From contig CANQKX010000003.1 in the NCBI GenBank assembly GCA_947624565.1, positions 11,340 through 75,339 of the forward strand: a DNA stretch of 64,000 nucleotides, read 5' to 3'. Under the pieces are notes generated by a model, which worked only from the letters and a program-made list of their open reading frames with translations, did no database searches and was not told the DNA's origin. The position numbers and the translations under genes were made by a program. Source of the stretch: an uncultured Bacilli bacterium (GTDB taxonomy: Bacteria; Bacillota_I; Bacilli_A; RF39; UBA660). This document shows, one piece after another, positions 9,762 to 30,093 of this stretch (the stretch's first letter is position 1; every line of letters begins with the position of its first letter).

Positions 9762-9846
9762 AAACAAGATAATATAATCTCTAGTATCGCGGCAAATTTT
9801 GTTGTATAATTTAGAAGTAAAAAAAATAAAGAGAGGAAAAGACGAA

Positions 9847-10611
9847 ATGAAAAAACAAAGACTACTAGTAGTAGATGATAATTTAAGTTTAATACATATG
9901 GTAAGAGAGTACTGTAAAAATAGCAGTAAAATGGAGGTTACCTACGAAGCACATGATGGAGAGGAAGGCTTTAAAATATTAAAAGAGCATAGTGAAGAAA
10001 TAGATCTAGTTTTACTAGATTTAATTATGCCTAATAAAGATGGATTATATTTTCTAGATGAAGTAGAAAATGGAAATATTAAACCAAATATAATTGTTGT
10101 TACATCTTTTAATGCAGATGAAATGATAAGAAGAGTATCAGCATATAATATTAAATATTTTTTATTAAAACCATTTGATTTAGAAGATTTAGAACAAAGA
10201 GTTTTAGAAGCAACTAATCAAGTAGAATTTAAAACTGCAAATGCACATGAACAAGATTTAAGAATATCTGTAACAAAATTGCTTCATGAACTAGGTGTTC
10301 CATCACATATAAAGGGATATCAATATATAAGAGAAAGTATATTACTATTATATAATAATCCAGATATAGTAGGAGGAATAACTAAAGAATTGTATCCAGA
10401 TATTGCATCTAGATTTAATACTTCAGTTTCAAGAGTAGAAAGAGCAATAAGACATGCGATTGAGGTAAGTTGGAATAGAGGTAATTTAGATCTTATGGAA
10501 GAAATTTTTGGACATAGTGTAGATTATGATAAAGCAAAACCAACAAATAGTGAATTTATTGTAACAGTAGCAGATAAATTAAAGATAGAATTTAATGCAT
10601 TTAAAGTTTAA
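9847..10611 (+). CDS. spo0A: Sporulation master regulator Spo0A
   Basis: Receiver LLDLIMPNKDG; C-terminal GVPSHIKGYQY, ITKELYP, SRVERAIRHAIEV, KPTNSEFI; ATG 9847 follows GAGAGG. Confidence 0.97.
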   Translation: MKKQRLLVVDDNLSLIHMVREYCKNSSKMEVTYEAHDGEEGFKILKEHSEEIDLVLLDLIMPNKDGLYFLDEVENGNIKPNIIVVTSFNADEMIRRVSAYNIKYFLLKPFDLEDLEQRVLEATNQVEFKTANAHEQDLRISVTKLLHELGVPSHIKGYQYIRESILLLYNNPDIVGGITKELYPDIASRFNTSVSRVERAIRHAIEVSWNRGNLDLMEEIFGHSVDYDKAKPTNSEFIVTVADKLKIEFNAFKV

Positions 10612-18434: not shown

Positions 18435-19513
18435 TTTGCAATATATTTTATATAATATTCTTCATATGACATACCTTTTTTATGTACTTTAGTTGCAGTT
18501 TCTACTCCAACATATCTTATATGCCATGATTCAGCAGCATAACCAGTTATATCTTCCCATTCTTCTTTATATCTAAATATATATCCATATTTATATGCAT
18601 TTTTAGAAAGCCATGCATATTCTTCTCCTTTAGTTGTTATAGTCCATATGTTAGCAAGATCAATCGCAAGTCCAAGTTCATGTTCTGAAAATCCAGGTTT
18701 AGCAGCAAATTTATCTGCTTTTTCTTTACCATTTTCATATACATAATTGTCATATATTATTTTTTGATAATCATAACTTCTATATGCAGATTCTGCATAG
18801 AAATTAACACCATCTTTTCTAGATGCATCACACATTTCTACAAATTTGTCATATGCTTCTTTTCTTAACTGTTTTTGTCCATAGCTGTTATTAGCGTAAT
18901 CATCTGACATATCAACTAAGTCATCTGGTTCATAATCTTCAGGTATTTCTAAATATTTATTAGTTAAAACAGTAATATCGTTAGGATTTTTAACAATCAC
19001 ACTATCTTCATAATATTCTTTATCCAAATTAAGTTCAATTCTATAAACTATTTCATCAATACTTAAATTTTTATTATTTTTTTGGTAATTTAGATATCTA
19101 TCAAATTTAGAATATTTAAACAAATCATTTTTTATATATTCCTCATAATCTTTATTATATTTTTTAGATAAAAATTCTGTAATTTGACTACTTTTTAAGT
19201 TTCTAAGAACATAATCAATAGTAGTTTTATTATATCCTTTATCATCAAGTTCTATTATATAATCATTTGTTTTATCATTTATCTTTTTATTATTTTTCAA
19301 ATAATTTATGGTATCTTTAATTTCATCTTTTGTGTAATTAATACTAAACAATGTATCAATAATTTTACTATATTTTAAATTAGAAATATAAAGAGGTGCA
19401 TTTAATATCTTTACTCTATTAATTATAAAGATTGGGAGCAATACTATCATAACTAATAATATTTTTGCAATATTTCTTCTAAGTTTATAATTAGGTTTTT
19501 TACTTCTTTTCAA
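18422..19513 (-). CDS. VanY-like M15B D-Ala-D-Ala carboxypeptidase, membrane anchored
   Basis: SAYRSY, PGFSEHELGLAID, ESWHIRYVG. Confidence 0.88.
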   Translation of the reverse strand: MKRSKKPNYKLRRNIAKILLVMIVLLPIFIINRVKILNAPLYISNLKYSKIIDTLFSINYTKDEIKDTINYLKNNKKINDKTNDYIIELDDKGYNKTTIDYVLRNLKSSQITEFLSKKYNKDYEEYIKNDLFKYSKFDRYLNYQKNNKNLSIDEIVYRIELNLDKEYYEDSVIVKNPNDITVLTNKYLEIPEDYEPDDLVDMSDDYANNSYGQKQLRKEAYDKFVEMCDASRKDGVNFYAESAYRSYDYQKIIYDNYVYENGKEKADKFAAKPGFSEHELGLAIDLANIWTITTKGEEYAWLSKNAYKYGYIFRYKEEWEDITGYAAESWHIRYVGVETATKVHKKGMSYEEYYIKYIANKKN

Positions 19514-19616
19514 TATACTTCACCTACTTTACTTTTATTATACCAAAAGTGAAAAAATTGTCTATAAAAATTTCATAAATAAATACTTTTTACATATTTT
19601 TTATTAGAGGTGTTAT

Positions 19617-19972
19617 ATGAAAAAGTTTTTGTTTATATTTTTAATATCTTTTATGTTTATGATTAATGTAAATGCAGAAGATTTAAAACTAACTGAAGGC
19701 GCTAAAAGTTCAATTTTAATAGAAGCATCAACTGGTGAGATAATTCATAATAATAATGAAAATGAAAGACTTGCTCCTGCATCAATGACTAAAATAATGA
19801 GTTTAATTATAATTATGGAAGAAATAGAAAAGAAAAGTATAACTTTAGATGAGGTAATAACTGTAAGTGAAAATGCATCAAAAATGGGTGGATCACAAAT
19901 ATACTTAGAGGCTGGAGAAAAAATGACAGTTAATGATTTATTAAAGGCAATATGTGTTGGTTCTGCGAATGA
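19617..19972 (+). CDS. dacF: D-alanyl-D-alanine carboxypeptidase DacF, 5' segment (interrupted; runs 18 codons into the element to 20027)
   Basis: Signal peptide; ERLAPASMTKIM (SxxK); MGGSQIYLE; homology ends at VGSAN (SxN). Confidence 0.92.
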
Positions 19973-19995
19973 ACTAGCTGTTTCAATAAAGCAGT
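19950..19995 (+). other. Left attachment junction, crossover dinucleotide GA at 19971-19972
   Basis: Only GA is shared with the right junction; element arm 19973-19995 is an imperfect inverted repeat (16/23) of 36579-36601. Confidence 0.85.
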
Positions 19996-20075
19996 CGCAT
20001 CTTTTAAAAGAAGAAATAATAATATAACTACATATAAACCTTATGTTTTAAAGTATTATTGTAAGTTTTATATAT

Positions 20076-20098
20076 AAAGCCATACTAGGCTTTTTTTT
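20076..20098 (+). terminator. Intrinsic terminator at the element's left end
   Basis: AAAGCC-ATACTA-GGCTTT running into a T tract; directly at the stop of the circular-form recombinase. Confidence 0.7.
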
Positions 20099-20210
20099 GT
20101 TTCAAGTAATTTAATTAGATTAAATAGTAGTAACTAATGATATAATGTATATATAAACATATTTAGACATAGTTATTTTTACTAATTCATTCTTTTATTT
20201 GTGTGGTGAA

Positions 20211-20239
20211 TTGACAGTTTTAATGTTTTATAGTATTAT
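20211..20239 (+). promoter_or_regulatory. sigmaA-type promoter of the cargo operon
   Basis: TTGACA-N17-TATTAT about 40 nt upstream of the first ATG. Confidence 0.55.
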
Positions 20240-20281
20240 AAACACCATAAAAAAGGGATTTGGTTTGAATCGGGTGATTTT

Positions 20282-21151
20282 ATGATAGATTTACATACTC
20301 ATACAGTTCATTCGGATGGGATGTTAACAGTGAATGAATTGATTAATAATGCCGTTGAGAATAATGTTGAAGTTATATCTATAACTGATCATGATACTAT
20401 TTCAGCATTAAGTGAATATAAAAATATGCATTTAAAAAATGATATATTGGTTATTCCTGGAGTTGAGTTTTCTACAGATACATATTATTTAGGTAGGAAA
20501 ACCAAAATTCATTTATTAGGATATGGTTATAGTGTTGGAGATAAAGTAATAAATCAAGTATTACATGAATTATATATTAGGCGCTTTAATGACAATAAGG
20601 AATATATAGAAAATTTAATAAAAAAATTTCATTATTTAAATATGGATTATTTTAATGGCTTTGACTATGGTAAATATGGATGGTTATATAAGAATATATT
20701 GAATTATATAAAAACATTTATAGATAGGGAACAATTAGAATTATTGAAAGAATATTTGATAAATAATAGACCTCGTTATAATAAATATAATGAGAGAGTT
20801 GAAGATATGATTAGATTAATACATTCTTGCAATGGTTATGCAGTATTTGCACATCCTCAAAAGTGTGATGTTACTAAAGAAGAACTTCAAAAATTAGTTA
20901 TATATTTGAGAAATTTAGGATTAGATGGATTAGAGACATATCATATTGAATCAGATCAAAATGATAGAAATTATATACATAGTTTAGCTTTAAAATATGA
21001 TTTATATGAAACTGGTGGAAGTGATTTTCATAGTTTTAAGTACTCTAACGGTGTTGGTGATTCCAATATAAGATTTCCTCAAGATTATGAACCATTATTA
21101 GTAAAAAAGTTAATAAAAGAAAAAAAAGTGTTGGGTGATATCATTGAATAA
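20282..21151 (+). CDS. PHP-domain phosphoesterase
   Basis: DLHTHTVHSDG, ITDHD, IPGVEFS, FAHP, TGGSDFH. Confidence 0.9.
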   Translation: MIDLHTHTVHSDGMLTVNELINNAVENNVEVISITDHDTISALSEYKNMHLKNDILVIPGVEFSTDTYYLGRKTKIHLLGYGYSVGDKVINQVLHELYIRRFNDNKEYIENLIKKFHYLNMDYFNGFDYGKYGWLYKNILNYIKTFIDREQLELLKEYLINNRPRYNKYNERVEDMIRLIHSCNGYAVFAHPQKCDVTKEELQKLVIYLRNLGLDGLETYHIESDQNDRNYIHSLALKYDLYETGGSDFHSFKYSNGVGDSNIRFPQDYEPLLVKKLIKEKKVLGDIIE

Positions 21152-22082
21152 TGAAAATATAATGTTAGAAAAATATAACAAAAAATATCTATTACCTGTA
21201 TATTCTGGAACACTCGCTATTGAAGGAATTCTTAAAAGTTTAAGATTAGGTAAAAATGATAAGGTGTTGATTACTAATGTTGTATGCTATAGTATTTTAC
21301 ATGCTATACTAAATGCTGGTTTGATTCCAATTATAGCAATCCCTAGTAATGGGCTAACATTAAGTAAAAAAGAAATCAGAGAAATAGTAAAAAAGGAAAA
21401 AATTAAAGTATTTATTGCGGTTCATCAATATGGTTATGAACAAGAGATAGAGAAAATTAATAATTTAATTATTATCGAAGATATTTCTCAAGCTTGGAAT
21501 ATTAAATTAAATAATAGACAAGTTGGAGAAAATAGTGATTATATTATATCTTCTTTAGGAAATAGTAAGCCATTATCCAATGGTGTTGGTGGATTAATAA
21601 TGTCTAATATTAACTTTATTAGTAAGTTTGATATAAAAACTAAAGAGTGTAGAAATAGTATTGATAGTATTTTGGAGTTTTATTATCCATTAACAATTAA
21701 TTATAAAAGAATAGTTAAAAAAGCAAATAAAAAAGTTTCTAATCAAAGAAAAAATGCAAATTTTTTTAAAAAATTACTAAAAATTTATAATTTTATTAGA
21801 TTAATAGATGAAAACAATACTATTCCAAGTTATCACAGGTTTCCAATATATGTAGATGATATTGAATATGATAATATTTTAAAAATTTTAGATAAATGTA
21901 AGGTTAATTATCAAAAAGAATATAAAAATAAGTTAGACAAGTTAAATGTAGTTAAGAAATTAGATATTAAAGTAGTTAGTAATAATAACATAAAAGAAAA
22001 GTGTTTATTATTAAAAACTAATAATAATTATCTAAATTTGAAAAAATTTGAAATTGAAATGAGGAAGCACTATGGATCCTAA
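21135..22082 (+). CDS. DegT/DnrJ-family PLP aminotransferase-like protein, N-terminally short
   Basis: SGTLA, VHQYG, IIEDISQA, SLGNSKPLSNGVGG. Confidence 0.75.
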   Translation: MISLNNENIMLEKYNKKYLLPVYSGTLAIEGILKSLRLGKNDKVLITNVVCYSILHAILNAGLIPIIAIPSNGLTLSKKEIREIVKKEKIKVFIAVHQYGYEQEIEKINNLIIIEDISQAWNIKLNNRQVGENSDYIISSLGNSKPLSNGVGGLIMSNINFISKFDIKTKECRNSIDSILEFYYPLTINYKRIVKKANKKVSNQRKNANFFKKLLKIYNFIRLIDENNTIPSYHRFPIYVDDIEYDNILKILDKCKVNYQKEYKNKLDKLNVVKKLDIKVVSNNNIKEKCLLLKTNNNYLNLKKFEIEMRKHYGS

Positions 22083-23019
22083 AATTATGTATATAAGAGT
22101 ATCAGAAAATTGTAATTCTCATTGTTTTATGTGTCATTTTGCTGGTACTACTAATTCAATAAATATAAATAATGAACAATACGATAAAATATTAAAACAT
22201 ATGAGAAATCATAATTACAAGATGATTAGGTTTACAGGTGGAGAGCCTTTATTGCATAAGAATATAATTGATTTTTTAATCAAGGCAAAAAAACTTGGAG
22301 TTAAAACTTCAATAATTACAAATGGTTATCTATTACCAATATATGCTGATCGACTTATAGATTGTAAATTAGATGAGTGCATTATTAGTTTAGATGGATC
22401 TTGTAGCAGTATTCATGATAGTTTAAGAAATTTTAATGGGTGTTTTGAAAATATAATTAAAGGTATAAAAAAATTAAAAAGTAAAAATATCATCATAAGA
22501 GTTAATACAGTAGTGAGCGGTAAGAATATACATGATATAAATAATATGTACGATTTATTAGTAAATTTAGGTGTAGATCAGTGGTCTATAATACCTATTA
22601 AATATAAGGATAATTTATGGAATGAACATAGTAAAAAATACTATTTAGATTTTGTTGATAGGGTAAAAGATTCTACTAGCATAAAGTTTTTAGGTTATTC
22701 TAAAAACTTTGCTGGTATTAGTGACAAAGAAATTGATGATACTTTTTCTAATAACTCCACATTAAAAATTAATGGTCAATGTAAAGTGGTTGATAATGTA
22801 AGATTTTATATACCCGATAAGGATATACTAATTCCCTGTAATTGTGTTGCACATAGATTAAAGGAAATACCCTTTGATTTAAGTGGTGATATGGAAGAAG
22901 TATGTGAAAAAATCCGACTATGGTTAAAAGAGAATAATTCTAATTGTAAATGTGAACCGTTAAATGTTTATATTAACGATCATCCTGAAATAATGGATGA
23001 AGATGAAATATTATATTAG
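22072..23019 (+). CDS. Radical SAM enzyme, BlsE/MilG-like (cytosylglucuronate-modifying)
   Basis: YIRVSENCNSHCFMCHFA CxxxCxxC, IRFTGGEPLLH, ITNG, SLDG; C-terminal Cys residues; N-terminus resembles BlsE as recalled. Confidence 0.75.
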   Translation: MDPKIMYIRVSENCNSHCFMCHFAGTTNSININNEQYDKILKHMRNHNYKMIRFTGGEPLLHKNIIDFLIKAKKLGVKTSIITNGYLLPIYADRLIDCKLDECIISLDGSCSSIHDSLRNFNGCFENIIKGIKKLKSKNIIIRVNTVVSGKNIHDINNMYDLLVNLGVDQWSIIPIKYKDNLWNEHSKKYYLDFVDRVKDSTSIKFLGYSKNFAGISDKEIDDTFSNNSTLKINGQCKVVDNVRFYIPDKDILIPCNCVAHRLKEIPFDLSGDMEEVCEKIRLWLKENNSNCKCEPLNVYINDHPEIMDEDEILY

Positions 23020-23030
23020 GTGGTGATAAT

Positions 23031-24185
23031 ATGATAAATCCTAATGAATATGGTAGTTTATTATTTGATGAAAAAGAAAAAGAATATTTAAGTAATGTAA
23101 TTGATACAAGAAGAATATTTAGATATTCAAAAACACAATATCCTTATACATCTATGTGTGAAGAAAAAATTAAGAATTTAGTAGGTTCTAATTATTGTTT
23201 AATGACAACTAATGGTACTTCATCTTTAAAGAGTGCATTTATAGGTGCTAATGTTAAAAAAGGTGATAGAGTATTAATCAGTTCTTATACATTTTTAGCT
23301 ACTGCTTTAGCGGCTATAGCAATAGGAGCAATTCCTATACCAATAGAAGTTGACTTAGATTATGGTGTTAATATAGAGGATTTAAAAAATGAGATTAAAT
23401 TAGGATGTAAGACTTTAGTTGTTGTTCATTTTCAAGGTAGAACATTTGACTTAAGTGAAGTAAAAAGAATATGTAAAAAAAATGGTGTTATTTTAATTGA
23501 AGATGCTTGCCAGGCTTTTGGAGCAAAGTTTAAAGATAAGTATGCAGGAACATTTGGAGAAATTGGTGTTTATAGTTTTCAGCAATTTAAACAAATAACA
23601 TGTGGCGAAGGTGGATGTGTTGTTACAAACAATGAACTAATATTTAACAGAATGCGTAATTATACAGATATGGGATCAACTAGAAATAGATTTCCATCGT
23701 GGGATAGTGATGAGGCATTGTTTGGTGAAAATAATAGAATGAATAATTTATGCGCTGCTGTGCTGTATGCTCAATTAGAAAAATTAGATAAAATAATTTC
23801 TAAACAAAGAAAATCTAGAGAAAATATAATGAAAAAAATTAGTAATATTAACAACATATTAACAAGCAAGGATAGTAGTGGAGATACTGGCATGAATATT
23901 ATTATTATATTGAATGATAAAAAATTTAAAGAAGAAGTTATTAATATTGGTAAAGAGAATGATATTGAATTTAGAAATATGTGGGCATCATTATACTATG
24001 ATAATGAATTGTTTAAAAAATATAAATTAACATCTAAAGATTTAAAAAATAAAGAATGTAGTTATACAAGAGAGTTGATTGATAAAATGTTAGTAGTTTC
24101 TATTCCTCCAATACTAAATTCTGATGATGAAGTTAAGATAGCAAATTTAATTCAGATAATAAATAATAAGGGGTATTTATCATGA
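23031..24185 (+). CDS. DegT/DnrJ/EryC1/StrS sugar aminotransferase (BlsH/MilD-like role)
   Basis: TNGTSSL, VVVHFQG, IEDACQAFG, SFQQFKQITCGEGG. Confidence 0.9.
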   Translation: MINPNEYGSLLFDEKEKEYLSNVIDTRRIFRYSKTQYPYTSMCEEKIKNLVGSNYCLMTTNGTSSLKSAFIGANVKKGDRVLISSYTFLATALAAIAIGAIPIPIEVDLDYGVNIEDLKNEIKLGCKTLVVVHFQGRTFDLSEVKRICKKNGVILIEDACQAFGAKFKDKYAGTFGEIGVYSFQQFKQITCGEGGCVVTNNELIFNRMRNYTDMGSTRNRFPSWDSDEALFGENNRMNNLCAAVLYAQLEKLDKIISKQRKSRENIMKKISNINNILTSKDSSGDTGMNIIIILNDKKFKEEVINIGKENDIEFRNMWASLYYDNELFKKYKLTSKDLKNKECSYTRELIDKMLVVSIPPILNSDDEVKIANLIQIINNKGYLS

Positions 24186-25117
24186 TAATTGAAAGTATTA
24201 GTAATAATGAATATTTGGAAATTCTAAAAAATAATAATATAGATATTCCTATATATGCAGATCAAGAAGCACTTGATATATATTCTGAAAAAGAAATTAT
24301 TAAAGTTGTTAAGAATGATTGTCCATTAGCTGTATTTTTAGTACCAATCAATAATAATGGAGTTAGAAGGGAGTATAGATTTTTTCCATATATAAGTCCA
24401 ATATTTATAAATAATGAAAACAATTATAGTAAAAAGAAAGTACTAAAAATAATTTTTAATTATTTATTTAATAAATATGATTACTGTTTTATTCCATTAC
24501 ATCCTTCATTTAAAATGATTTCTGGGATACAAAGTGAAGGTGGATTTGTCGAAATGCGACATACTCATGTAACTGATAAGAAAATGAGTTTAGATAATGT
24601 ACCAACTAAATTAAGAAATCATATTAGAAATGCTTTTAAACAAGTAGAAGTTGTTATAGAAAGTGATTATGATGATTATGATTTTAATTTAGCAATTAAG
24701 GGTGATAAGGATGAAATTTTTAAAAGAAGTAATTTAGCTAAGAAGTTAATCGATAGTGGAAAAGGTTTAGTAATTAAGGGTATTGTTAATGGTAAAGTTA
24801 AAGCAGGTATAATTTGTATATACGATAAAGAGTGGGCATATTTATTACATTCTTATCAAGATAAAACAATTAGGGGTATTATTCCTTTACTTATATTAAA
24901 AGCAAATGAATATTTATTTGATGAAGTAGGAATAAAATATTTTGATTTTGAGGGAAGTGTTATAGATGAAATAGATGATTTCTTTTCTAGTTTTAATGTA
25001 AATATAGTAAACTATCCATACATAATTGAATCAAAATCAAAAGAAAAATTTTATGGATTGATTGATAGAAGTATGAATATTGAGGGAAGGATAAAAGAAT
25101 ATGAAAGTAACAAATAG
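24182..25117 (+). CDS. GNAT/FemAB-like acyltransferase-fold protein
   Basis: KLRNHIRNA...AYLL...GIKYFDFEGS...FFSSF pattern of Fem-type GNAT domains. Confidence 0.65.
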   Translation: MIIESISNNEYLEILKNNNIDIPIYADQEALDIYSEKEIIKVVKNDCPLAVFLVPINNNGVRREYRFFPYISPIFINNENNYSKKKVLKIIFNYLFNKYDYCFIPLHPSFKMISGIQSEGGFVEMRHTHVTDKKMSLDNVPTKLRNHIRNAFKQVEVVIESDYDDYDFNLAIKGDKDEIFKRSNLAKKLIDSGKGLVIKGIVNGKVKAGIICIYDKEWAYLLHSYQDKTIRGIIPLLILKANEYLFDEVGIKYFDFEGSVIDEIDDFFSSFNVNIVNYPYIIESKSKEKFYGLIDRSMNIEGRIKEYESNK

Positions 25118-26144
25118 AGAATTTACTAATATAAAAAATGGTAGGCAAGTATATATAATTACTGAAGATGATAGTTTTAAAAACAAAGATTTTGTATTAT
25201 TAGAGTGCGAATCTGAAAATATAGAAGTGGAAATAACAATTAAATACAAATATAATAATTTAGATGATTGCTTTAATTTAATTCCTTTTGAATTGTTTGG
25301 AAATTTCAAAAATAAAGACGAAGCTAAAGACTATTATAAAAATGTGAAAAATATTATAGTATATAGAATAAAGTATGATAATAAGAAGTCTTTAAGTAAT
25401 GAATTGGATCCTGAATTACTAAAATTAATTGATTTATCTTCAATTAATAAGAATACAATAGGTCATAGTTCTAGTGAAGTTTATGAAGTAAGATTGAAAG
25501 ATGGGACTAATGCAATTTTAAAAATTCAATATTTAACTAGTAGAAATGATTTGAAAGGAGAATATGAAAGAAATAAATGGTTAGAGGGAAAATTAAACGT
25601 TCCAAAAGTATACTATTATAAAGAATTAAATAATTTTCAATATTATTTAAGAGAAATGAAAAATGGTATATCTGCTCACAAAGTAGAAAATTTTGCTAAA
25701 TTGGTGGGTAAAAATCTAAAGCAGATACATAGTATAGATATTACAAATTGTCCTTTTAATAATAATAGTGTTGACAACTTATTAAAAATAGCTCTATCTA
25801 AAATCGATATAATTCTACCAACCATACTAGAAATATATCCAGAAATGAATAAGGAAAGTATTCTTGAATTTTTAAAAGATAATAAACCTACTGATAATGT
25901 ATTGGTACATGGAGATTATAGTTTGCCAAATATATTAATAGATGATAATGGGAAAATAAGTTTAATTGATTTAGGGGACGTTAGTATATCAACTAAATAT
26001 TTTGATTTATATTACTTAAAGAAAAGTTTTGTTAGAAATAAAAAAATGGAATTTTTTAATGATTTTTTAGAAAGTTATGGACTATCTGAAATTGATGAAA
26101 AATCTATGAAGTGGATGGATATAATAGATAAGGTGCTATTTTAA
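25101..26144 (+). CDS. Aminoglycoside phosphotransferase APH(3')-like kinase with N-terminal ASCH-like domain
   Basis: IGHSSSEVY, WLEGKLNVPKV, LVHGDYSLPNIL, IDLGD; about 90-aa extra N-domain. Confidence 0.8.
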   Translation: MKVTNREFTNIKNGRQVYIITEDDSFKNKDFVLLECESENIEVEITIKYKYNNLDDCFNLIPFELFGNFKNKDEAKDYYKNVKNIIVYRIKYDNKKSLSNELDPELLKLIDLSSINKNTIGHSSSEVYEVRLKDGTNAILKIQYLTSRNDLKGEYERNKWLEGKLNVPKVYYYKELNNFQYYLREMKNGISAHKVENFAKLVGKNLKQIHSIDITNCPFNNNSVDNLLKIALSKIDIILPTILEIYPEMNKESILEFLKDNKPTDNVLVHGDYSLPNILIDDNGKISLIDLGDVSISTKYFDLYYLKKSFVRNKKMEFFNDFLESYGLSEIDEKSMKWMDIIDKVLF

Positions 26145-28243
26145 TGATTATCATAAGAAATATAAAAAAATTAGTTGAATATGAAAAAATAATAAGAAGT
26201 TTAAATATAAATAATTTTCAGCAAACATATGACAATATTTATTCAATTTATTTATCAAATAAAAGTGCAATTACATTTATTGAAAATGAGATGCTAACAG
26301 TATTTGTAAAAAGAGATGAAAATATTTATGAATGTCCTTTAAATATAGAACCAATTATAGGTAGTAAAAATACATCAAAAGAGTATTTAAATTTTATAAA
26401 TACTATTAAGAAATATTTAAAAAAAACAATATATTTTCCATTAGTATATGAAGATTCAAATTTTTATAAGATTTTAAAAAATGATGTGTATACTTATGAT
26501 AGATTATATACTTCAATATGTAATTATACTAAAATTGATAATATAATTGATAGAGTATTAAATAGTGATAGAGTACATTATTCCAATAAAAATGTTAAAA
26601 AGTTTGAAAATAAATTGTACATTAAATATTATACAAAGATAAATCCAAGAAATATTATAACAGAAATTGAAAGTGATAGTTGGAAACACTTAGCAAAACA
26701 AGATATGATAGCTAAAGAAGAACAACTTGTATATTATTCATCGATCGTAGAATTAGGTATTGCAAATATTGCAGTTTCTTACATGAAAGATACAAATGAT
26801 ATAGTTTCATATAGAATAGAAGCTTTATATAATAACAAAATTCATGTTTTAAAAAATTCTTATAAAGAGAAATATAAAAAATATTCACCAGGATCCTACA
26901 TGTTAATTAGTGATTTATACAATCATTATAAAAATACTGAATATATGGATTTATATGGTGGACCTGGTTTAGTTAAAGATATGATAGAAACGTATAGAGT
27001 TAATAGATACGATATGGTAATTGGTGATATGAAGGTAATCAGAGACTTAGAGAATAATAGAAAAAAATGGGATTTAAAAAACTATAATAATTTTTTAGAT
27101 GGTAAATCAATCAAAGAAGTATTTAATAAGAAAAAAAATATTCTTGCAGTTGCTAGCTGTTTTGGATTAGGTCCAGTAGGAAAATTAAGTGCTATTGTAG
27201 AAGCAAGTAAAAATGATTTTAACTGGTTTGCTTCTGGTGAAGAGTTTGATGTAAATGTATTTAATGATAAAAAAATATTTATTGATAAATGTTTTACTAT
27301 GGATAAAGATGAAATAAAAAAATTTATAGATAAATACAATATTAAATATGCTTTAGTAGTATTAAAAAATAAGATGGCCCGTCTACTATTAGAATTAAAT
27401 GTTAAAGTTATATATGTGGATAGTTTACCATTTTTGTGGAGTGTTGCAGATGCTAAAACTGGTAAAATCCCATATGATGTTGATTGCTATTGTGCACAAA
27501 AAACTATTGAATTATCTAATGAATCAAATAAATTGTTTAGCAATGTGAAAAACTTGGTTTGGATTAATCCAATTATAAATATTAACAGAAACAATTTAAA
27601 CAATAATCTTGAAAACGAAGAGTTTATCTTAATAAATATTGGAGGATTGCATTCTCCAACAACTAGTGGACTTGATTATGTAGATATTGTATTAAAAAGC
27701 ATTGTGAATATTTACAGTAACATTAAAATAATAATAACAACTTCTTCTGAAGCATCTATTGATTTAAATGAATATTTTAAAGAATATAAAAATGTTATTA
27801 TTAAAAATTTGAATCAAAATGATTTTTTTGAACATATCAAAAAAGCAAAAATTTTTTTTACAAGTCCTGGTTTAACTACTATATTAGAAAGTAGAAGTAT
27901 AGTTAATAAAGTGATTTTTTTACCACCACAAAATATAAGTCAATTTTATAATGTTGAATATGGAAAAAAAATATTTGAATATTATAAAGAGATTACTTGG
28001 AATAATAGTGATTTAAGTTTAATTGGTTTACAAAAGTATTTGAATAAGGATGAACATGGGGTCATAGAAATAATAAATGATAATATTCAAAAAATGAATA
28101 ATTTGAGTGATATAAAAAAATTTATAAAATACATTAACAGTGTTTTAAATGAGGATTATGTATTAAATAAAAAAAGTATTGATGTTAAATTTGATGGAGC
28201 TATGCAAGTAATAGATAATATCAAAAAAGTAATGGAGGAATAA
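26144..28243 (+). CDS. Fusion of GNAT-like domain and cytosylglucuronate (CGA) synthase-like GT-B glycosyltransferase
   Basis: N-half SWK...YKKYSPG...DLYGG GNAT pattern; C-half FGLGPVGKL, YVDSLPFLW, LINIGGLHSP, TSPGLTTILE, LPPQNISQ. Confidence 0.7.
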   Translation: MIIIRNIKKLVEYEKIIRSLNINNFQQTYDNIYSIYLSNKSAITFIENEMLTVFVKRDENIYECPLNIEPIIGSKNTSKEYLNFINTIKKYLKKTIYFPLVYEDSNFYKILKNDVYTYDRLYTSICNYTKIDNIIDRVLNSDRVHYSNKNVKKFENKLYIKYYTKINPRNIITEIESDSWKHLAKQDMIAKEEQLVYYSSIVELGIANIAVSYMKDTNDIVSYRIEALYNNKIHVLKNSYKEKYKKYSPGSYMLISDLYNHYKNTEYMDLYGGPGLVKDMIETYRVNRYDMVIGDMKVIRDLENNRKKWDLKNYNNFLDGKSIKEVFNKKKNILAVASCFGLGPVGKLSAIVEASKNDFNWFASGEEFDVNVFNDKKIFIDKCFTMDKDEIKKFIDKYNIKYALVVLKNKMARLLLELNVKVIYVDSLPFLWSVADAKTGKIPYDVDCYCAQKTIELSNESNKLFSNVKNLVWINPIININRNNLNNNLENEEFILINIGGLHSPTTSGLDYVDIVLKSIVNIYSNIKIIITTSSEASIDLNEYFKEYKNVIIKNLNQNDFFEHIKKAKIFFTSPGLTTILESRSIVNKVIFLPPQNISQFYNVEYGKKIFEYYKEITWNNSDLSLIGLQKYLNKDEHGVIEIINDNIQKMNNLSDIKKFIKYINSVLNEDYVLNKKSIDVKFDGAMQVIDNIKKVMEE

Positions 28244-28244
28244 T

Positions 28245-28691
28245 ATGAAAATATATTTAGCAAGTCCTATATCTAAATATGTAAGAAATGGAATGAATGA
28301 GGATTATACTGAAACTATGGATAATGTTTATAAATTATTATGTAATTATGGAGAAACATATTATCCGTTAAAAAAAGAAGCATATGGAGCCGATAAAACC
28401 GCTGGTTCAGGTGATGTATGTACGAAAATAGATTTTGATAAAGTAAATGAAGCAGACTTAATAGTTGCTTTCCCAGAAGATTCACAAGGTGTTTCTGTTG
28501 AAATAGGCTGGGCTAGCTCAGTAAATAAAAAAATACTTATTTTTATTGATAAAAAATACCATCAATCAGAATTAATTAGATTTATTGATACAATCACTCC
28601 TACAGTAAAAGTAAACATAGATACAGTAAAAGGTTATAAAAATGTTGAAAAACAAATATTAAATGAAATAAACAAGTATTTTGGAGGATAA
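28245..28691 (+). CDS. Nucleoside 2-deoxyribosyltransferase / CMP hydrolase family (BlsM/MilB-like)
   Basis: IYLASP, DFDKVNEADLIVA, SQGVSVEIGWA. Confidence 0.8.
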   Translation: MKIYLASPISKYVRNGMNEDYTETMDNVYKLLCNYGETYYPLKKEAYGADKTAGSGDVCTKIDFDKVNEADLIVAFPEDSQGVSVEIGWASSVNKKILIFIDKKYHQSELIRFIDTITPTVKVNIDTVKGYKNVEKQILNEINKYFGG

Positions 28692-28693
28692 TT

Positions 28694-29776
28694 ATGGAGT
28701 TAAAATGCGATTTTCAAGTTTATCATCCTTTGGGTGGAGCATCTTATGTTTTTGAACATGATATTATAAATTATATATTACGTAAATCTAAAAAGAGAAA
28801 AATTGTTATAAGTGTAGGGGCACAACCAAATTCTTCTCCACATTTTGGAACATTATGTGTATTTTCATTAGCTTTTTCACTTGCAAAAATGATTAAAGAA
28901 ATAAGTGGCGATAAAGAAGCTAGTGTTTTGTTTGAAGTAGTAGATACAGCTCCAAGCAAAACAATTGAAATAAATGAAATAAAGTATCAAAAAGATTTAA
29001 AAGATTCTAATAAAATGAAAGATTCAATGAATGACTTTCAAGAAATACTAGATTATTTTAGCGAAAAAAATAATATTAGTTATAGTATTAGAAATCAAAA
29101 CGCTTTTAATAGTCAAAAAGAAATTAAAAATATTTTAAAAAATATTATTTCAAAGCAGGATAAAATTAGGTATTTACTTGACCCTGATAATGGTAGATTA
29201 AGAATGAGGTGTACTTGTCCAAAATGTGGATTAGTGGATAAAGAAGGAATTAATACTACCATAGAAAATGATATTATTAAATCTATATGCCCAGAACATG
29301 GTGAATATATTGTAAATTATATGAAAAATAGTAATAGAGTTGAGTATAATACACCTTTGAGAAATTTAGTAAGAGCCATCTTATATGGAATTGTTAATGA
29401 AAGCAGTGACTATGATTACGAGATAATTAGAATTACTGGTGGCGATTATGCTGGATTTTATCAAGAAGAATTATTGTATAAAGTAGCTTCTATTTTAGGT
29501 TATAAAGTTAGTTCACTTCCAATGATATTGTATTGTCCACAAATATTAGATTGGTCTGGAGCAAAGTTGTCAAAAAGTCTATATGTAAAAGAAGGAGCTT
29601 ATTCAGATTTGCCAAAGTATGTAATTAACTATTCTTTTTTAAAAGAAAAATTTGGTATAAAGGGATTAGATGTTATAATGAATGAGACAGTGTTATGGTT
29701 AAATGAACCTTATAGACTATTTAGGAATTATTCAGTATATTATTTTATTAATTTATTTGAGAAAGGAAGATTATAA
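28694..29776 (+). CDS. Class I lysyl-tRNA synthetase-like catalytic domain without anticodon domain
   Basis: GAQPNSSPHFGT (HIGH-like), CPKCG...CPEHG, GAKLSKS (KMSKS-like); only 360 aa. Confidence 0.7.
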   Translation: MELKCDFQVYHPLGGASYVFEHDIINYILRKSKKRKIVISVGAQPNSSPHFGTLCVFSLAFSLAKMIKEISGDKEASVLFEVVDTAPSKTIEINEIKYQKDLKDSNKMKDSMNDFQEILDYFSEKNNISYSIRNQNAFNSQKEIKNILKNIISKQDKIRYLLDPDNGRLRMRCTCPKCGLVDKEGINTTIENDIIKSICPEHGEYIVNYMKNSNRVEYNTPLRNLVRAILYGIVNESSDYDYEIIRITGGDYAGFYQEELLYKVASILGYKVSSLPMILYCPQILDWSGAKLSKSLYVKEGAYSDLPKYVINYSFLKEKFGIKGLDVIMNETVLWLNEPYRLFRNYSVYYFINLFEKGRL

Positions 29777-30076
29777 ATGGATATAAAAAAAACTCAGGAA
29801 GAAATAATACAAAATAAGATAAATCATGGATTTAATACAACAGATATAGCTAAAGAGTTTTGTTTACTTTATGGTGAGGTTGGAGAAGCATATGAGGCAT
29901 ATCGTAAAAAGAAAGATGATTTAGGAGGAGAACTAGCAGATGTTGCAATTTATTTGTTAGGAATTTCAGAATTGTTAGGCTTTGATTTGGAAAAAGAAAT
30001 AAAAGATAAAATGGAAATAAATAAGAATAGAGTATATAAAAAAGTAGATGGGGTTAATGTTAAAGTTGACATTTAA
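29777..30076 (+). CDS. MazG-like nucleotide pyrophosphohydrolase
   Basis: LLYGEVGEAYEA...GGELADV. Confidence 0.85.
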   Translation: MDIKKTQEEIIQNKINHGFNTTDIAKEFCLLYGEVGEAYEAYRKKKDDLGGELADVAIYLLGISELLGFDLEKEIKDKMEINKNRVYKKVDGVNVKVDI

Positions 30077-30093
30077 TTATTTTAGTATATAAT
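30066..30093 (+). promoter_or_regulatory. Consensus sigmaA promoter for the ABC-F gene
   Basis: TTGACA-N16-TATAAT, 23 nt before ATG 30117. Confidence 0.65.

Follow-up and report, generated by a model that had tools for sequence, protein, structure and literature searches.

A large serine recombinase gene that spans its element's own attachment site, with a conserved 34-codon end joined to it only in the excised form

Introduction

What becomes of a recombinase when the element that encodes it integrates through the recombinase gene itself? The question is raised by a 64,000-nucleotide (nt) stretch from an uncultured Bacilli bacterium (RF39, UBA660; contig CANQKX010000003.1, positions 11,340 to 75,339, of GCA_947624565.1, an assembly of 1.06 Mb in 27 contigs). 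This stretch is hereafter called the window, and its own numbering is used throughout. A 16,631-bp mobile element (19973-36603) here interrupts the gene for a PBP5-type D-Ala-D-Ala carboxypeptidase at its SxN codons, and the open reading frame (ORF) of the recombinase carried by the element runs across the right-hand junction. Serine integrases integrate by recombining attP with attB, excision requires a directionality factor, and the C-terminal end of these enzymes is poorly understood. An initial annotation of the window had proposed that the recombinase gene spans attP and that its C-terminus depends on the state of the element. Both the anatomy of the locus and the conservation of the detached end in related elements bear this out. 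The observation is confirmed and extends to at least two clades of elements; the mechanism offered for it we infer in part.

Results and Discussion

The split gene and the point of insertion

The genes, half-sites and tail terminator located below all lie on the plus strand. The 5' half of the carboxypeptidase gene (19617..19972) matches positions 11-112 of 239 of the Pfam profile Peptidase_S11 (5.1e-26; PBP5/S11) and includes the core GA of attL (19971-19972). The 3' half (36602..37399) begins at the codon GAT (36602-36604), matches positions 106-238 of the same profile (3.8e-47) and carries PBP5_C in addition; the core GA of attR is found at 36602-36603. When the sequence left of the element, GA included, is fused to the sequence that follows GA on the right, the result is ...GSANDAVVALAERISG, the same reading as in uninterrupted orthologues of the same genus (10 of 10 examined), which have ...GSANDA(V/I)V... 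and the DNA AATGA followed by TGC at the break point. Precise excision would in this way restore the carboxypeptidase ORF. The dinucleotide GA is common to attL, attR and the attB of all ten intact orthologues, and since these orthologues and the rejoined halves of the window read alike, the crossover is placed at GA within the SxN active-site codons.

The sequence details given by the initial annotation hold, with the end of the element set here at 36603, while the name dacF that it used for the split gene is not established; the gene could be dacB or dacF. In G014, a genome with a related element, a Gate-domain gene (PF07670, 1.3e-07), presumably spmA-like, comes next after the split paralogue. 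No Gate-domain gene was found beside the window gene, and a tblastn search of the source genome with the two downstream genes of G014 gave no match. The source genome encodes the sporulation proteins Spo0A (261.7 bits, cut-off 200) and SpoIVA (677.5 bits, cut-off 459.9), and the gene of the former lies in the same window (9799-10611), about 9 kb upstream of the element. The G+C content is about 24% both within the element and outside it. Genetic code 4 was ruled out: TGA terminates four of 27 long ORFs, TGG occurs 64 times as a codon, and table 11 leaves the long ORFs unbroken.

A recombinase gene interrupted by its own attachment site

In the integrated state the recombinase ORF covers 34951-36624 and encodes 557 amino acids (aa). 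Its Pfam domains are those of serine recombinases only, namely Resolvase (3.6e-29, residues 25-171), Recombinase (2.7e-18) and Zn_ribbon_recom (7.1e-09), and by this predicted architecture the protein is a large serine recombinase (LSR). The residues R28 V29 S30 T31 are invariant across 41 aligned homologues, and S30 is the catalytic nucleophile predicted from the family. The first 551 codons (34951..36603), referred to here as the core, encode a protein that ends in ...NLNEFLLLFSNNDR and has homologues of 57-95% identity; the last of these codons, AGA (R), finishes exactly on the core GA of attR (36602-36603). Beyond it the frame, having read ...FLLLFSNNDR, continues with CSSRSC and a TGA stop (36604..36624), the six codons at 36604-36621 being carboxypeptidase DNA of the 3' half read in another frame, as the initial annotation had noted.

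The remainder of the gene is found at the opposite end of the element. At 19973..20077 lie 34 codons and a stop, hereafter the tail: 19973-20074 translates to TSCFNKAVASFKRRNNNITTYKPYVLKYYCKFYI, and TAA follows at 20075-20077. The first tail codon begins at the first base after the core GA of attL. As AGA ends on the core GA and tail codon 1 follows the same GA, the two frames match on the circle, and the tail is coupled to the core ORF only in the excised (attP) form. In the integrated state an in-frame TGA, composed of the T of AAT and the core GA, stands directly upstream, and the tail is thus not translated. Directly after the tail stop follows a hairpin with a T-run that resembles an intrinsic terminator (20076..20101; hairpin 20076-20093), the sole such site in 19400-20400 (shuffled sequences: mean 0.1). 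The 34 open codons and the terminator immediately behind them had also been described initially. No terminator-like site was detected on the plus strand between 34695 and 37500, which makes it plausible that the transcript of the integrated state reads through into the 3' half of the carboxypeptidase gene. The predicted full protein of about 585 residues is encodable only by the excised circle or by an attP joint in a tandem array.

The attachment site itself is predicted to consist of the half-sites P (36572..36601) and P' (19973..19999). The former contains ACTGCTTT (36579-36586), which codes for LLLF of the conserved ...FLLLF... motif, and the latter AAAGCAGT (19988-19995), which codes for KAV; the P' half-site corresponds to tail residues 1-9. 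When the reverse complement of the P arm is compared with the P' arm outward from GA, 18 of 30 positions match, a value reached by 3 of 20,000 shuffles, and the AAAGCAGT block is perfect in both arms at positions 16-23 from GA. Five other elements have a comparable arm symmetry (18-21 of 30). The site hence combines features of a serine integrase, that is, a dyad-symmetric attP of about 50 bp, a 2-bp crossover and a simple attB. Both predicted half-sites lie within the recombinase ORF, the end of the protein and its own putative binding site sharing the same DNA. An exact 21-nt stretch of the P' arm had no match in metagenome_contigs.

The arrangement recurs in relatives. LSR loci were examined at 23 places, 21 of them of the carboxypeptidase-targeting type, and in 19 of these 21 the LSR crosses the core into host DNA and ends in unrelated Cys/Ser/Gly-rich residues. 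Where both ends could be paired on one contig, the LSR codon ended on the GA core in every pair tested (5/5). Of the 120 best database homologues, which are 73-95% identical, 96 continue into host DNA for 6-22 residues, with C-termini that are not conserved among them; in 23 the frame closes no later than the core codon, and one is without the conserved C-terminal motif. As 96 of 120 run into host DNA, the database proteins of this LSR family are almost all of the integrated-state form.

The tail is conserved at the protein level

Taken singly, the tail of the window is weak evidence of a coding sequence, as open runs of 34 codons also arise by chance (P = 0.022 from base composition; at least 34 open codons at 6.3% of 1,452 intergenic start positions within the element); the weight comes from conservation. 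The tail peptide was searched in six frames against 401 genomes of the same family. This gave 16 matches at E <= 5.3e-7, the genome of origin (G000) included, and weaker ones up to E 0.1, to a total of 50 of the 401 genomes. At least 15 related elements, which come from other genera, carry the tail at their left end, and GA directly precedes tail codon 1 at every left end read. Most of the strong matches have an open frame of exactly 34 codons: 14 consist of 34 codons and a stop, one (G062) is intact but has no stop and one (G104) is cut by the contig end. As the tail is conserved in frame across related elements, the split arrangement is, judged by this comparison, not due to chance.

The tails form three sequence groups that share the pattern [K/I]-A-V-x-x-[F/Y]-x-R-[R/K]-x-N-N-I-T-x-x-K-P-Y-x-L-x-Y-Y-x-K-[F/L]-Y-[I/M]. 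Seventeen tails, including two from a second clade (see below), align without gaps and have R13, K22, P23, Y24, Y28 and Y33 invariant. Among 15 intact tails the ratio of non-synonymous to synonymous differences (pN/pS) over codons 1-34 is 0.51, and the two alternative frames give 0.80-2.74; these figures describe the data and are not independent tests, the pairs compared having shared ancestry. The strongest coding signature is found outside the P' half-site, in codons 9-34, where pN/pS is 0.39 (0.88 and 2.74 in the other frames). The 15 tails contain no stops in the tail frame and two to eight in the others, and the tails of G014 and G021 differ by seven synonymous and no non-synonymous changes. 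Between the groups, identity is 53-77% in the tail and 38-66% in the C-terminal 201 residues of the LSR. The initial annotation had proposed asking whether homologous elements keep the 34-residue tail in frame; they do, ungapped and with pN/pS of 0.39-0.51.

A terminator-like site follows the tail in three of the four element types scanned, namely the window, group B (L066) and the spoVS clade (L095). In group C (L053) none was called after the tail by the rule of the tool, and a weaker hairpin with a T-run is visible by eye. With Pfam at E values up to 10, no family was found on the tail or on the last 101 residues of the core.

A second clade in spoVS

The same organization is seen in elements inserted in another gene. 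The LSRs of this clade (G333, G202) are about 30-36% identical to that of the window over the last 201 core residues, and the N-terminal part of their host gene matches Pfam SpoVS (3.9e-22). In G333 both element ends are on one contig, 15.5 kb apart, and the LSR reaches the junction with the codon AGG. On the left, 34 open codons (SGYSSNSVLEIIRRGQVALGEKPYILRYFARFYI) precede a stop, which a terminator follows after about 30 nt; the tail of G319 is the same. In this clade the in-frame tail finishes in ...KPYILRYFARFYI before its stop. With attP 34 codons before the stop in both clades, this position has been kept while the target and the sequence of the site changed.

Loss and decay of the tail

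In three genomes (G380, G362, G264) tail nucleotides 28-105 contain 12-40 gap columns with frame-breaking deletions, and the P' arm formed by the first 27 nt is free of gaps and matches at 23-26 of 27 positions. In G250 a one-base insertion shifts the frame near the tail end. The LSR open frames of elements with a decayed tail are 562-569 aa long. In two further elements (G113, G300) the LSR frame is closed by a TAG immediately ahead of the core GA and no tail was detected; what survives of it at the left end of G113 is the AAAGCAGT block and a few fragments. Homologues in which the frame closes no later than the core codon (23 of 120) have differing ends (TNS, SNG, SKRK, SNSE), which suggests that the tail was lost repeatedly. 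The LSR core, by comparison, is open in 29 of 29 matches within the family, and the conserved C-terminal motif is found in 119 of the 120 best homologues. No intact tail with a broken core was seen among the loci examined. Tails without an LSR on the assembled contigs (G159, G062, G243, G284, G414) may stem from the assembly. As the tail is lost or decayed where the LSR core is intact, its role would be modulatory or tied to the free state, and not essential to the enzyme.

Occurrence of the joined form

A database protein in which core and tail are joined was sought with a natural 52-aa open frame from L066 that contains a group-B tail. One protein (P0122, 274 aa, from a 1,607-nt contig) reads from ...DFLLLFSNNDR straight into an intact 34-residue tail, and two others (P0045, 574 aa, contig of up to 57 kb; P0133) read from the core into a frameshifted or partial tail. 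The attL and attR sequences of group B share only about four bases around the core, which makes the joint of P0122 hard to explain as an assembly artefact. In an AlphaFold2 model of P0122 (mean pLDDT, the predicted local distance difference test, of 65) residues 97-156 form long helices with pLDDT of about 97-98, in keeping with the coiled-coil insertion in the zinc-ribbon domain of LSRs, and a search of PDB sequences with P0122 gave matches at chance level only (E >= 0.18). An alignment that included tail fragments (A3) was dropped for folding, as the last core segment of the homologues was misplaced onto the tail: over residues of about 205-274 of P0122, MAFFT had aligned the homologous core HKVMLHFKLNI...NLKDFLLLF with the tail KKAVASYRRRNNNITTLKPYVLKYYYK. 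This misplacement hints at an internal repeat in the C-terminal extension.

Two other proteins present the tail in different company. In P0123 the 5' half of the carboxypeptidase is fused in frame to the tail and in P0191 an unrelated N-terminus of 47 residues is fused to it, so junction variants can translate the tail in other contexts.

A putative state-dependent enzyme

Because both half-sites are inside the ORF, integration leaves the 551-codon core at the right end with six meaningless host residues added, and strands the last 34 codons and their terminator at the far left end behind the in-frame TGA. As the tail evolves under constraint at the protein level, the full-length protein is probably made and matters. 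In the integrated state the clipped core would be the working enzyme: it would cut the element out and thereby restore the carboxypeptidase gene, probably in the course of sporulation and probably aided by a small protein. Such a role in excision is suggested by elements with a decayed tail, in which the core ORF and the attL half-site are still intact, and that excision by the core would rebuild the gene is proposed by analogy with the skin, SPbeta and gin elements. The tail may in turn be a built-in sensor of state that serves the free circle and is helpful rather than indispensable: most likely it favours or limits integration or sets the stability of the protein, and it might raise the efficiency of integration or block re-excision. 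We give a probability of roughly 0.55 to the reading that the core suffices for excision and that the tail serves the free circle in integration, stability or directionality.

Several observations weigh against it. Twelve of the 29 LSR-bearing genomes of the family have no tail match at E <= 0.1, perhaps owing to assembly gaps or tail loss, and in three (G059, G114, G124) the LSR reads into host DNA and the left end was not found. Frequent loss could equally mean that the tail does little, and the tail region of P0122 (residues 220-274) is modelled with pLDDT below 50 and gives no structural hint. At its N-terminus P0122 has 56 residues of an unrelated and common gene family, so its contig may be chimeric or rearranged. 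Among 50 metagenome loci that match P0122 none runs from the LSR core into the tail. Three are confined to the LSR part, up to residue 241, and four carry an intact tail at an attL junction; L155 is a remnant that has been rearranged and lies next to a MazG-like gene, and all other loci match the unrelated N-terminus of 56 residues. The viral contigs of IMG/VR gave one locus for P0122, which is integrated, and no joined form. A search of 1.84 billion representative proteins gave no full-length LSR with a tail among the 142 matches listed, those past the joint being only short tail-bearing ORFs (P0159, P0191) and a distant fragment with a tail-like end (P0224). Finally, if the target were a forespore-specific, dacF-like gene and not a dacB-like one expressed in the mother cell, the excision that rebuilds it would lose the element from the germ line.

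Of the other explanations, the one that survives best is that the two isoforms alone set directionality, the tail either suppressing recombination of attL with attR or being needed for the synapsis of attP with attB. On this view the circle would encode the integrase and the integrated copy the excisionase, and a separate directionality factor would hardly be needed, if at all. In its favour, the architecture confines each isoform to the state in which its reaction can take place, purifying selection acts on the tail, and decay of the tail has left core and attL half-site in place, which fits a tail required for integration alone; attP, moreover, is 34 codons ahead of the stop in both clades, the targets of which differ. 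A conserved small ORF is, however, found directly upstream of the LSR, placed like known directionality factors; tail-less lineages are common (23/120) and have reached several stop-codon solutions, and the tail would not be required if they still integrate; and the structure of the tail region is not predictable with AlphaFold2. On balance we find this explanation doubtful. The same holds for its widest form, which remains speculative, namely that this LSR clade might set its own directionality through gene topology, the circle encoding a full-length integrase and the integrated copy a clipped, excision-biased enzyme, with the 34-residue tail as a cis-encoded and state-gated anti-excision or pro-integration module kept at the same codon through retargeting from the carboxypeptidase gene to spoVS.

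A 'suicidal' integrase of the SSV kind, in which loss of the tail would cripple the enzyme, integration would be self-limiting and excision would need full-length enzyme from another copy, appears improbable. An attP inside the recombinase gene is the defining trait of the SSV type (PMC8371274, in the part of the text available), the tail is conserved as protein and ORFs of the attP form are very rare in the databases searched. Yet only 34 of about 585 residues are removed and all three Pfam domains stay in the core, which is open in 29 of 29 family matches and in the 120 best homologues, where inactive pseudogenes should decay; moreover, tail-less elements keep an intact core and the attL half-site. 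Nor does the source genome hold a second close full-length copy of the LSR, its only two further matches being partial, at contig ends, and 50% and 27% identical.

The poorest candidate is a by-product, in which attP merely overlaps the 3' end of the gene and the 34 codons are held by constraints on the DNA (attP, terminator, promoter) without a role for the residues: the first eight to nine tail codons do form the P' half-site and must be conserved as DNA, the tail has been lost repeatedly and the C-terminal 55 residues are predicted at low confidence, but codons 9-34 outside the half-site have the low pN/pS of 0.39 against 0.88 and 2.74 in the other frames, no indel occurs in 17 tails, K-P-Y-x-L-x-Y and the final Y are invariant even in the spoVS clade with its different DNA, and the groups are at least as similar in their tails (53-77% identity) as in the C-terminal 201 residues of the LSR (38-66%).

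Relation to known systems

Sites within integrase genes are established for tyrosine recombinases, and the two precedents named by the initial annotation hold (this and the following papers are cited from the parts of their texts that were available). In the Myxococcus xanthus phage Mx8 attP lies within int, and integration gives the gene a new 3' end (IntP/IntX) by which the enzyme is not destroyed and its properties are modified (PMC6070905). The present element likewise has attP within the coding sequence of its own integrase, and differs in that the enzyme is an LSR and not a tyrosine recombinase, with a 2-bp GA crossover and a target inside a protein-coding gene of the sporulation type. 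In the SSV-type tyrosine integrases (SSV1, pTN3, pT26-2) the site is also inside the recombinase gene, which is partitioned on integration, and self-disrupting recombinases were described in a 2021 review as exclusively archaeal (PMC8371274). Those genes are, however, cut into two large and inactive parts, whereas here only the last 34 codons are removed and the domains stay in the core; the SSV-type enzymes are archaeal tyrosine recombinases, and here the hosts are bacterial and the enzyme a serine recombinase. By its predicted organization the present system works like the tyrosine systems with attP within the integrase gene but is not a member of them.

Elements that intervene in sporulation genes include skin (SpoIVCA) in sigK, SPbeta (SprA-SprB) in spsM and gin (GirC-GirX) in gerE (PMC5595907, PMC5499854, PMC4191935, PMC5025042). 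The present element resembles these in anatomy: an LSR element lies inside the ORF of a putative sporulation gene of a probable spore-former, and precise excision would restore the ORF. Unlike in these elements as described, the recombinase gene crosses attP, a feature that the available part of PMC5595907 does not mention. A literature search on 'dacB' did not return the carboxypeptidase SxN target. TnpX, the clostridial LSR of Tn4451/Tn4453, reportedly has a GA crossover, and the joint of its circle is said to create a promoter at the 5' end of tnpX. If so, state-dependent expression of an LSR and the GA crossover are shared with it, and the difference is that the joint here completes the 3' coding end.

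In mycobacteriophage BPs and its relatives, which have integration-dependent immunity, attP lies inside a phage gene and integration changes the C-terminus of the product (PMC4557955). There the gene that is cut is that of the repressor, here it is that of the recombinase itself. The change in BPs is said to remove a degradation tag, and the integrase is reportedly a tyrosine recombinase.

In the open-access literature searched, no report of a serine recombinase gene that spans attP was found, the available parts of PMC5595907, PMC10083194 and PMC11722253 included. The principle of a recombination site inside the recombinase gene is thereby extended from tyrosine integrases to bacterial large serine recombinases. 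The full-length, clipped and naturally tail-less lineages amount to a natural experiment on the C-terminal end of serine integrases. When serine integrases are mined as tools for genome engineering, pipelines that take the ORF from integrated copies (PMC10083194, in part) would enter, for this LSR family, a clipped enzyme to which junk residues are attached, as is the case for 96 of the 120 best homologues. Its elements interrupt sporulation-type genes in many uncultured Bacilli of the gut, and the family thus bears on the origin of developmental gene rearrangements.

Upstream region, cargo and further loci

An ORF of 64 aa without a Pfam match (34739..34933) lies directly 5' of the recombinase gene. 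ORFs of 64-68 aa are kept at this place in every element type looked at (66-68 aa in the relatives). Known directionality factors are often encoded directly upstream of their LSR, and the 64-aa ORF is a candidate for such a factor. A terminator-like hairpin (34674-34695) with a T-run is found just 5' of this ORF and the recombinase gene, and an alternative pairing (34653-34658 with 34677-34682) overlaps its 5' stem. The structure within 34590-34700 may be an attenuator of recombinase expression.

The cargo of the element (20282..32223) comprises biosynthetic genes like those for nucleoside antibiotics, together with an ABC-F protein. Its members include a PHP protein, two DegT-type aminotransferases, a radical SAM enzyme, an APH-like kinase, a MazG-like protein and a nucleoside 2-deoxyribosyltransferase-like protein, as well as a 699-aa protein of which the C-terminal half resembles cytosylglucuronate synthase (TIGR04467, 5.7e-49, under the cut-off). 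The ABC-F protein resembles ribosomal-protection proteins (NF000355, 429.6 bits, cut-off 380). Overall, the cargo looks like a nucleoside-antibiotic gene cluster with self-protection.

The carboxypeptidase gene is associated with other serine recombinases as well. In G010 (C4:722-3184) a serine recombinase with three internal stops lies about 0.5 kb from a shortened carboxypeptidase copy (224 aa frame), and in G025 (C15:13967-20607) one lies about 5 kb from such a copy (219 aa frame) on the same contig; the identity of the recombinases at these two loci is 26-28%, and the arrangements may represent further insertion points in the carboxypeptidase gene. On a contig from IMG/VR (L089:3557-5571) a second, unrelated serine recombinase of 481 aa breaks the 3' half of the carboxypeptidase gene about 100 codons further on.

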